A stretch of DNA of 10,371 bases, from the NCBI GenBank assembly GCA_015523565.1, contig WAKA01000118.1:1-10371 (forward strand). Direction: 5' to 3'. A model generated the notes under the pieces. It was given only the letters and a program-made list of their open reading frames with translations. It had not been told where the DNA came from and searched no databases. Made by a program: the position numbers and the translations under genes. Numbering within the stretch: position 1 is the stretch's first letter; each line of letters begins with the position of its first letter. Shown here in pieces: positions 1 to 1,627 of the stretch. The stretch is from Candidatus Heimdallarchaeota archaeon (GTDB taxonomy: Archaea > Asgardarchaeota > Heimdallarchaeia > Heimdallarchaeales > Kariarchaeaceae).

Positions 1-297
1 ATATGATTCAACCCTAATGTAAATGCCAACATTCAAAAAAATAACAATGATAATGAATTTAAATGACAACATCATAATTTATGGAAGCACAATCGAAAAT
101 AAATAAAGAATTGAGAATACATTAATTGAATAGATAATTAAAATAAATAACAAGCAACAATACAATATTTAAGACAACCATTCGTATTTTTGTAAATCAA
201 TATCCAGTAAAATAATCGACACCCCATAGATCACCAGATTGTTTTAATATTGGCACAACCATTTTGTATAGTGAGGCAAAAGCCTAGTGATCTGGAA

Positions 298-480
298 ATG
301 GTCGATCTGGTAATTCACTAATTATACTTCACGCCTTTAAGGGCGTTGCTGCTGCCCTGTTGTCATTTTGGCTCGGCATTGAGTTGAGATACCTTTCGGA
401 GTCGAATTACAGCAGGGTGTTGAAAATCAATTGGGCCACGATAATTATGACTTGGCTCACATACATATTCGCGGTATGGT
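298..480 (+). pseudogene. 5' half of disrupted membrane-protein gene A (first two TM helices)
   Basis: SD-like GTGAT (287-291) precedes ATG298. As written the frame is MVDLVIH-stop (TAA 319-321). Adding one T at 313-315 gives MVDLVISLIILHAFKGVAAALLSFWLGIELRYLSESNYSRVLKINWATIIMTWLTYIFAVW, two hydrophobic helices. The hydrophobic, protein-like character ends at about 480, the inversion junction. Confidence 0.75.
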
Positions 481-616
481 ATAGAGGGGGAATTGATTTC
501 ATAAATTCAAAAAGTCCATGGAATTCCTCCTTCAAAACCACTAAAATTCCGCTCAAGACAGCGGCAACAGAATAAGCCAAAATCGAGACTACAACTGTAC
601 TGTTTGTTTCTTCCAT
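481..616 (-). pseudogene. 5' half of small membrane-protein gene B (inside the inverted segment)
   Basis: GGAGG (626-622) lies 5 nt before ATG616, next to the gene A stop (629-627). Translates MEETNSTVVVSILAYSVAAVLSGILVVLKEEFHGLFEFMKSIPPLY. In the present orientation it runs on into the antisense of gene A and stops at 407 (the 407..643 ORF). Confidence 0.75.
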
Positions 617-621
617 ATATT

Positions 622-626
622 CCTCC
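622..626 (-). promoter_or_regulatory. Shine-Dalgarno GGAGG for gene B
   Basis: Minus strand reads TGA-GGAGG-AATAT-ATG, directly after the gene A stop codon; typical of an operon-internal gene. Confidence 0.7.
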
Positions 627-913
627 TCAAATTCCTTTCGCAAGTCGGACTGTCATTGAGATGATCGCTCCAAACCCTTCCATCAAAACTGCAATTGCAA
701 ACATTGTAAATGCAATGGTCATTGCAATTTTCTTTGCTCCAGTGTCTTTGGTGAGATCCACATTCCTGACAAGGATAAAGAGCACAATTGTCAAGAGGGG
801 CATCAAAAACCAATGTTCCTTGACCTCTGTGAAAAACGCATGTCCCCAATAGTAATCGCTTCCTTTGATGATGGATTTGCTTCCCCCCTCACGTCCATAA
901 TAGGGAACATAGC
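627..913 (-). pseudogene. 3' half of membrane-protein gene A (inside the inverted segment)
   Basis: Open minus frame 917-627, absent from the ORF track: WCYVPYYGREGGSKSIIKGSDYYWGHAFFTEVKEHWFLMPLLTIVLFILVRNVDLTKDTGAKKIAMTIAFTMFAIAVLMEGFGAIISMTVRLAKGI*. It has two TM helices and an H-x4-E-x-K-E-H motif, with an in-frame TGA (920-918) immediately upstream and no start before 806. Confidence 0.8.
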
Positions 914-1105
914 ACCATCATTGGATCACCCACACGTATTTCTTGTTGATTATTTTTGCGATCATCTATTTTGTTTTCAAGTCAAGAGATGACACAATTA
1001 TGCAATCCGTCAAAAAGAACCAAACAGGATGGAATATGATCCACAGTTGTGGGTGCGGCCATTATTGCCCTTTGCATGCACCACCATGGAATAATCCTGC
1101 ATTGA
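914..1105 (+). pseudogene. 3' half of small membrane-protein gene B
   Basis: Plus frame from 916 reads HHWITHTYFLLIIFAIIYFVFKSRDD..., preceded by TAG (910-912). A further hydrophobic segment STVVGAAIIAL (1040-1072) is in another frame after TGA 1037-1039, implying a frameshift plus a nonsense lesion. That frame ends at TGA 1103-1105. Confidence 0.65.
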
Positions 1106-1162: not shown

Positions 1163-1627
1163 CTATTCCACACCCCTTTTCATAAGAATCACATCCCTTA
1201 TTTGAAGTGGCAACATTACAAGAAGTGAAAGGACAGTAAACATTTGCAAAAGGAATATTCTATTCATTGCAATGAAGACAAGGTCAAAAATGAGGGTGAC
1301 CAGTAGGAAAGTCGCATAAAAAGCCTGTTTTGGCCATAGGGAACCATTGATCAGGAAATAGTCCACCATGGCATTCAATCTCAGCGACCTTACATTGTAT
1401 TCGGGTCTTATGACATAGGTGTTGTTAGTATTCTTCATGACATAGCCATCCTCGACCAATTTTGAGAGATGATAACTAGCATGAGATGCTGTTTTCAAAC
1501 CGAGCCCATGCCGCACTTCTGTGGGACCGACCTCCCTGCCAACTTTCAGCAGGTAAACAAACACCTGAAGCCTCATCCCCGTAAGGTTGGAAAAGGACCC
1601 GTTCCCCCCATCAATTCCCTTTATCAT
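1163..1627 (-). CDS. Membrane-anchored winged-helix (ArsR-like) transcriptional regulator, 154 aa
   Basis: N-terminal wHTH pattern LQVFVYLLKVGREVGPTEVRHGLGLKTASHASYHLSKLVEDGYVMK, followed by two C-terminal hydrophobic helices (AFYATFLLVTLIFDLVFIAM; IFLLQMFTVLSLLVMLPL). Starts 6 bp after the upstream stop (TGA-TCGAGG-ATG). Confidence 0.85.
   Translation of the reverse strand: MIKGIDGGNGSFSNLTGMRLQVFVYLLKVGREVGPTEVRHGLGLKTASHASYHLSKLVEDGYVMKNTNNTYVIRPEYNVRSLRLNAMVDYFLINGSLWPKQAFYATFLLVTLIFDLVFIAMNRIFLLQMFTVLSLLVMLPLQIRDVILMKRGVE

Follow-up and report, generated by a model that had tools for sequence, protein, structure and literature searches.

A reciprocal 433-bp inversion at a 5-bp inverted repeat divides both genes of an apparently decaying membrane-protein operon in a Heimdall-type archaeon

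The window, i.e., the whole stretch of DNA analyzed here, is an entire contig (C118) of 10,371 bp from a MAG (G000) that comprises 233 contigs and 3.57 Mb and is about 90% complete. This genome encodes a full-length eukaryote-type actin (456 bits), which was taken as an indicator of Asgard affiliation. Near the left end of the window lie four half-genes, namely the 5′ and 3′ parts of two genes, A and B, distributed over both strands (Table 1). The first-pass annotation of this DNA, made from its letters alone, had predicted that gene callers would find only short spurious open reading frames at this locus, and the public records do indeed contain such ORFs, of 35, 58 and 69 aa. A RuBisCO large-subunit gene (433 aa; L010, 5674-6975) ends about 47 bp upstream of the window start, on the same strand as the former A-B operon.

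Table 1. Positions of the half-genes, the inverted segment, the short repeats and the annotated ORFs in the window.
Feature	Position	Strand	Remarks
AT-rich region upstream of the former operon	1-297	+	91-319 is a strain-variable stretch, common to the end of contig C5
A, 5′ half (residues ~1-62)	298-480	+	Ancestral ATG at 298; conserved frame 318-479; T480 opens the junction codon
69-aa annotated ORF	410-616	-	Chimeric: B 5′ half joined to antisense A 5′ sequence
Left microhomology copy, ATGGT	476-480	strandless
Inverted segment, 433 bp	481-913	strandless	Orientation opposite to both flanks in G001
B, 5′ half (MEETNS...SIPPL)	481-616	-	ATG 616-614; 45 codons, then the base that opens the Tyr junction codon
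GGAGG ribosome-binding site between A and B	622-626	-	5 nt ahead of the B ATG; arrangement matched in G001
A, 3′ half (YVPYYGREGG...RLAKGI)	627-913	-	Whole codons 911-630; stop TGA 629-627; 913-912 complete the junction codon
58-aa annotated ORF	630-803	-	Fragment in public records
35-aa annotated ORF	803-910	-	Fragment in public records
B, 3′ half (HHWITHTYFLL...)	914-1104	+	2-nt deletion after 1032; TGG to TGA at 1037-1039; ancestral stop TGA 1102-1104
Right microhomology copy, ACCAT	914-918	strandless

When positions 481-913 were reverse-complemented in silico, two open frames resulted, and the four half-genes became a colinear operon, A followed by B. The re-inverted gene A reads ...TYIFAVW-C-YVPYYGREGG...RLAKGI up to its stop and encodes about 157 aa; the re-inverted gene B reads MEETNS...SIPPLY-HHWITHTYFLL... 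and encodes about 109 aa. Each junction falls inside a codon that is completed from the opposite side, and no base is gained or lost. That is, in A, the T at 480 and the GC from the reverse complement of 913-912 form TGC, which encodes Cys; in B, the T from the reverse complement of 481 and the AC at 914-915 form TAC, which encodes Tyr.

An un-inverted counterpart of the locus was found by a DNA search of 40 relatives, in a genome of the same genus (G001). Contig C44 of that genome matches window positions 288-482 and 916-1106 on the same strand as each other, but 481-917 on the opposite strand, and both its genes are intact, A with 157 aa and B with 109 aa. The nucleotide alignment of the re-inverted window with this contig, at 75-83% identity, has no gaps at the junctions, and in multiple protein alignments the half-genes of the window abut exactly, with one junction residue between them. 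Both the re-inversion into a colinear operon and the claim that the junctions are in frame, with nothing gained or lost, are thus borne out. Protein searches located A followed by B on one strand also in G003, G002 (contig C393), G013 and G016, where B is shortened by a contig end; in G014 the tblastn match was to A only, yet a B-like ORF lies downstream of it. All these relatives are colinear. A search of 1.84 billion representative proteins with a profile of A recovered 300 clusters at E ≤ 1e-3, mostly of about 150-160 aa and matched end to end, over profile positions 1-151; i.e., full-length homologues do continue across the reconstructed junction. The colinear arrangement is therefore the ancestral state. 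The first-pass annotation had proposed both of these comparisons, with homologues and with related genomes, and both came out in its favor. A single-protein scan of genome contigs returned G001 alone. JGI metagenome contigs, scanned with the 3′ part of A, yielded no relative, and hence offer no view of orientation polymorphism in JGI samples.

The intact A-B pair in G002 (L017, contig C393) has an A that is 79% identical to the A of G014 (L018, contig C170), a member of a different family, and just ~38-40% identical to the A of its congener G001. This pattern points to gene transfer, to an old paralogue or to a binning error.

Neither the halves of A and B nor their intact homologues have a significant match in Pfam. 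Gene A encodes a membrane protein of four helices, in which the His/Glu motifs HAFxG, WxHAFFTExKEH and EGxGA are conserved. In some of its relatives (P0052, P0085, P0090, P0106 and P0142), the A domain forms the C-terminal half of a protein of ~300-330 aa, the N-terminal half of which matches DUF4079 / cytochrome b561, and the ESM Atlas model resembles the Urate_ox_N membrane domain, with a TM score of 0.73. These fusions, the structural resemblance and the His/Glu motifs weakly hint at a haem- or metal-binding redox module; from the fusions, the A-B pair may act in transmembrane electron transfer or in haem binding.

The inverted arrangement is present in several public assemblies. The 69-aa chimeric ORF, which starts with ATG and crosses the left junction, is on record in five contigs; an exact look-up of the two junction-spanning ORFs that start with TTG gave no record, probably because the reference translation has L, not M, as its first residue. 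An orientation-neutral look-up, by way of the neighboring intact gene (1163-1627, minus strand), gave six contigs; the 35/58/69-aa fragment pattern is seen in the four of these that were listed, and the other two are reported to be similar. Four contigs were fetched, from two ENA assemblies (BioSamples SAMN12239301 and SAMN12239307) and two NCBI MAG assemblies (GCA_027076585.1 and GCA_027071915.1). They are 99.5-99.96% identical to the window over 2.4-5.6 kb, without rearrangement, and one of them, a scaffold of 33.7 kb, has the locus in its interior. Because these contigs differ by SNPs, they are not copies of one assembly. The public contigs seem to stem from one study and may sample one population.

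Two haplotypes can be distinguished upstream of the inversion. The terminal 452 bp of another contig in the same bin (C5, L008) match window positions 1-450 at 97%, and all 13 differences lie within 91-319 (229 bp, 5.7%), in the promoter and the 5′ end of the disrupted gene A; in the 5 kb that follow, each fetched contig shows at most four differences from the window, except L011, which shows nine. The stretch 91-319 has the look of a tract imported by recombination or of a relaxed region. In L012, the C5-type haplotype is contiguous with the inverted segment, and thus the inversion and every small lesion are common to both haplotypes. L011 is a mosaic of the two. The contig ends of four assemblies cluster in or just past 91-319, namely at window positions 1, 67, 152 and 412 and, for C5, at 450. 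Two of these, the end of C5 at 450 and the start of L013 at 412, fall 30-69 bp short of the left junction, and none lies at the right junction. We provisionally attribute the contig breaks to a strain bubble at 91-319 rather than to orientation heterogeneity.

The sole inverted homology at the breakpoints is the 5-bp pair ATGGT/ACCAT that had been noted at first reading; a repeat search with 6-nt seeds revealed no inverted-repeat pair spanning both breakpoints. Among 200,000 random breakpoint pairs of equal span in this genome, microhomology of at least 5 bp occurred in 0.7% (P = 0.007); that is, the microhomology at the breakpoints exceeds chance. Known invertases would require a much longer repeat, however, and the one seen here is particular to this lineage, given that G001 has TTGGT and ATCAT at the two sites. 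We infer that the segment was inverted by recombinase-independent recombination between short inverted repeats. As to the junction codon of A, now TGC, the first-pass annotation had suggested that it may once have been TAC, which would have made the homology 6 bp. A Tyr ancestor is plausible because G001 carries TAT at the matching codon; the ancestral codon could, however, have been TAT, which would not extend the homology beyond 5 bp.

Relative to G001, both genes carry lesions in addition to the inversion. In A, a single nucleotide is deleted directly after ATGGTCGATCTGG (298-310), i.e., after codon 4, and as a result the frame that opens at the ATG runs into TAA at 319-321. Beyond this lesion, the conserved frame has its first canonical start at TTG 360, downstream of the HAFxG motif in helix 1; if a non-canonical start were used, this deletion might not inactivate the gene. 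In B, two nucleotides are deleted after GGATGG (1027-1032), and a TGG codon has become TGA at 1037-1039. The inverted segment also contains an in-frame 3-nt difference. The comparison with G001 thus confirms the extra lesions that had been claimed from the letters alone; the deletion in A had been placed at 313-315, which is within alignment ambiguity of the position given here. This deletion may predate the other lesions, because it is common to two haplotypes that differ by 5.7% in that stretch.

When the frames are read as repaired, dN/dS relative to G001 amounts to 0.055 in A and 0.086 in B; dS is saturated. Derived amino-acid changes on the G000 branch and the G001 branch number 4:4 in A and 5:7 in B, i.e., there is no excess, in a polarization test that is weak owing to its 8 and 12 informative sites. 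The low dN/dS and the lack of an excess of derived replacements on the G000 branch indicate that inactivation was recent; A and B appear to have been under constraint, through purifying selection, until recently. No second copy of A or B was found in this 90%-complete genome. Judging from the sequence, with an inversion, two frameshifts, a nonsense codon and prior constraint, both genes appear to be pseudogenes.

The operon appears to be dispensable in this genus and to be decaying in congeners too. In G003 (L016, contig C7, about 1850-1940), A changes frame near codon 22, while the remainder of A and all of B are intact; this may reflect independent pseudogenization or an indel error in assembly or sequencing. 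All that remains of B on contig C339 of G002 (L025, 100-520) is a frameshifted 3′ relic, which begins at about residue 52 and extends to the stop. The 1-nt frameshift in this relic is a few bases from the site of the 2-nt deletion in the window. The relic stands head to head with a 5′-truncated ABC-ATPase gene that starts at the GEKQR signature, and the bases ACCAT are also found at the junction. We considered whether G002 shares the right breakpoint of the window and rejected this, as HMMER starts the B homology at residue 52, about five codons from the breakpoint in G000. A weak lead, weaker than the improbable inverton reading considered below, is that the ACCAT/His-His site in B may be a rearrangement hotspot, given that B of G002 is broken about five codons away and joined to the truncated ABC-ATPase gene.

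We conclude that the locus very probably represents a decaying operon in which a one-off inversion at short inverted repeats has become fixed, and neither a switch nor an assembly error. This is the reading that the first-pass annotation had favored, and it is supported by the colinear relatives, the 5-bp repeat, the absence of a nearby recombinase gene, the further lesions and the single orientation of all contigs on record. Specifically, a single reciprocal inversion of 433 bp would have arisen by illegitimate recombination at ATGGT/ACCAT, either through a template switch during replication or through breakage and rejoining, and would since have become fixed. One copy of the repeat lay within A and its partner within B, the two genes of a conserved membrane-protein operon; the inversion cut both genes mid-way and so produced the four half-genes. 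The inversion with its exact ends, the colinear ancestor, the recurrence across assemblies and haplotypes, the additional lesions and the former purifying selection are shown by the data presented here; the molecular route and the order in which the lesions arose are inferred. The dispensable operon, also disabled by the 1-nt deletion in A and by the 2-nt deletion and nonsense codon in B, would now be a young pseudogene pair.

An alternative is that one complex, error-prone repair event, e.g., microhomology-mediated break-induced replication with template switching, made the inversion and the small lesions together. The microhomology at the junctions is in line with such an event, and all three small disabling lesions lie outside the inverted segment, no more than about 170 bp from a breakpoint (at about 311, 1032/1033 and 1037-1039, relative to 480 and 913). 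Moreover, the low dN/dS and the lack of a derived-change excess seem to leave little neutral time for four lesions to accumulate, which is somewhat unexpected under slow stepwise decay. However, the counts are tiny, and the polarization test, with its 8 and 12 sites, has low power. The occurrence of the 1-nt deletion in two haplotypes that differ at 13 of 229 bp suggests an older, separate origin for that lesion, and the independent small frameshifts of the congeners, which occur without an inversion, indicate that stepwise decay is evidently common. We therefore regard a single complex event as unlikely.

Another alternative is that the inversion is an invertible element. A decayed intragenic inverton, or one that still flips on rare occasions, which once switched a two-subunit membrane module on and off by means of a segment across the gene boundary, seems highly improbable to us; that such an inverton is still active, or was only recently locked, and switches both genes together is scarcely credible. 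The exchange is, admittedly, perfectly reciprocal and in frame at both junctions, intragenic invertons do exist, including one reported archaeal case (PMC10028968), and two contig ends lie near the left junction. Nonetheless, the inverted repeat is just 5 bp long and is lacking in relatives, as the TTGGT and ATCAT of G001 illustrate. No recombinase gene was found among the ORFs of the window, in agreement with the first-pass annotation, or in the ~2.8 kb further upstream on the 33.7-kb scaffold. The genes screened for recombinase domains encode a wHTH membrane protein, an NDH2-like oxidoreductase, an IrrE/M78 peptidase, a DUF4411 protein, an FtsX-like protein, the RuBisCO large subunit, an HTH_34 protein and a 201-aa protein without an assigned family; genome-wide, where the search covered serine recombinases, the one found is on another contig, C52. 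All contigs on record show one orientation, although a minority of un-flipped cells could go unseen in assembled contigs, and neither they nor the proteins on record include the un-flipped state in this species. Likewise, no intact A protein of the same species is on record; a word-based protein search gave the G001 protein alone. Lastly, flipping the segment back would not restore A or B, because both carry further frame-breaking lesions, and the colinear state would still be interrupted by frameshifts and a stop. Thus, of the four features sought in an inverton, namely a repeat of ~10 bp or more, mixed orientation on record, a recombinase and a functional state, none was found at this locus. 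The ON/OFF switch that had been put forward as an alternative at first reading is therefore unsupported, with both orientations broken.

Finally, misassembly, which had also been considered at the outset, is effectively excluded: an assembly or amplification chimera of a truly colinear genome might be suspected from the position of the locus, less than 500 bp from a contig start in a 233-contig MAG, and from the 97% overlap of another contig of the bin with window positions 1-450, but both junctions are found in four other contigs from different assemblies, samples and SNP haplotypes, one of them with the locus well inside a scaffold, exact reciprocity at both junctions is not what a chimera would produce, and, because any assembler k-mer is far longer than 5 bp, the repeat could not have led a k-mer graph along a false path, and both junctions must exist in the reads.

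A fixed one-off inversion of this kind can be compared with three known classes of event. Illegitimate inversions at short inverted repeats, through template switching or U-turn-like processes, have been described (PMC4417113, PMC10766183); the likeness to the present case lies in a few bases of inverted homology at both breakpoints, the lack of a recombinase and a one-off, disruptive event. The cases in those reports are from organelle and eukaryotic genomes and are often non-reciprocal (U-turns, inverted duplications), whereas the inversion described here lies in the chromosome of an archaeon, is clean and reciprocal and has become fixed in a natural population. Intragenic invertons (Chanin et al., 'Intragenic DNA inversions expand bacterial coding capacity', PMC10028968) likewise have both ends in coding sequence and change or truncate the products, and those seen 100% in one orientation are regarded as possibly locked. 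They are defined, however, by repeats detectable with einverted (11 bp in the tested example), by both orientations within a sample and by presumed invertases. Here, in contrast, the repeat is 5 bp, one orientation is seen and no invertase is nearby; in addition, two genes are cut rather than one, and neither orientation yields intact genes. Lastly, the locus resembles ordinary multi-lesion prokaryotic pseudogenes in its independent disabling lesions, the absence of a back-up copy, the recent constraint and the decay in sister species, but differs from them in that one lesion is a small inversion across a gene boundary, instead of the usual indel, stop codon or IS insertion.

In itself, the locus is the outcome of an ordinary mutational event and raises no new question. 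It does call for caution in annotation: because a small inversion crosses the gene boundary, gene callers emit chimeric short ORFs, the resulting 'genes' of 35, 58 and 69 aa are already public, and both pseudogenes are hidden from homology-based annotation. The locus also provides a clean example of what we take to be an inversion that proceeded without a recombinase, at inverted repeats of 5 bp, in an Asgard archaeon of the Heimdall type, and it points to the repeated loss, within one genus, of a small, uncharacterized two-gene membrane module.
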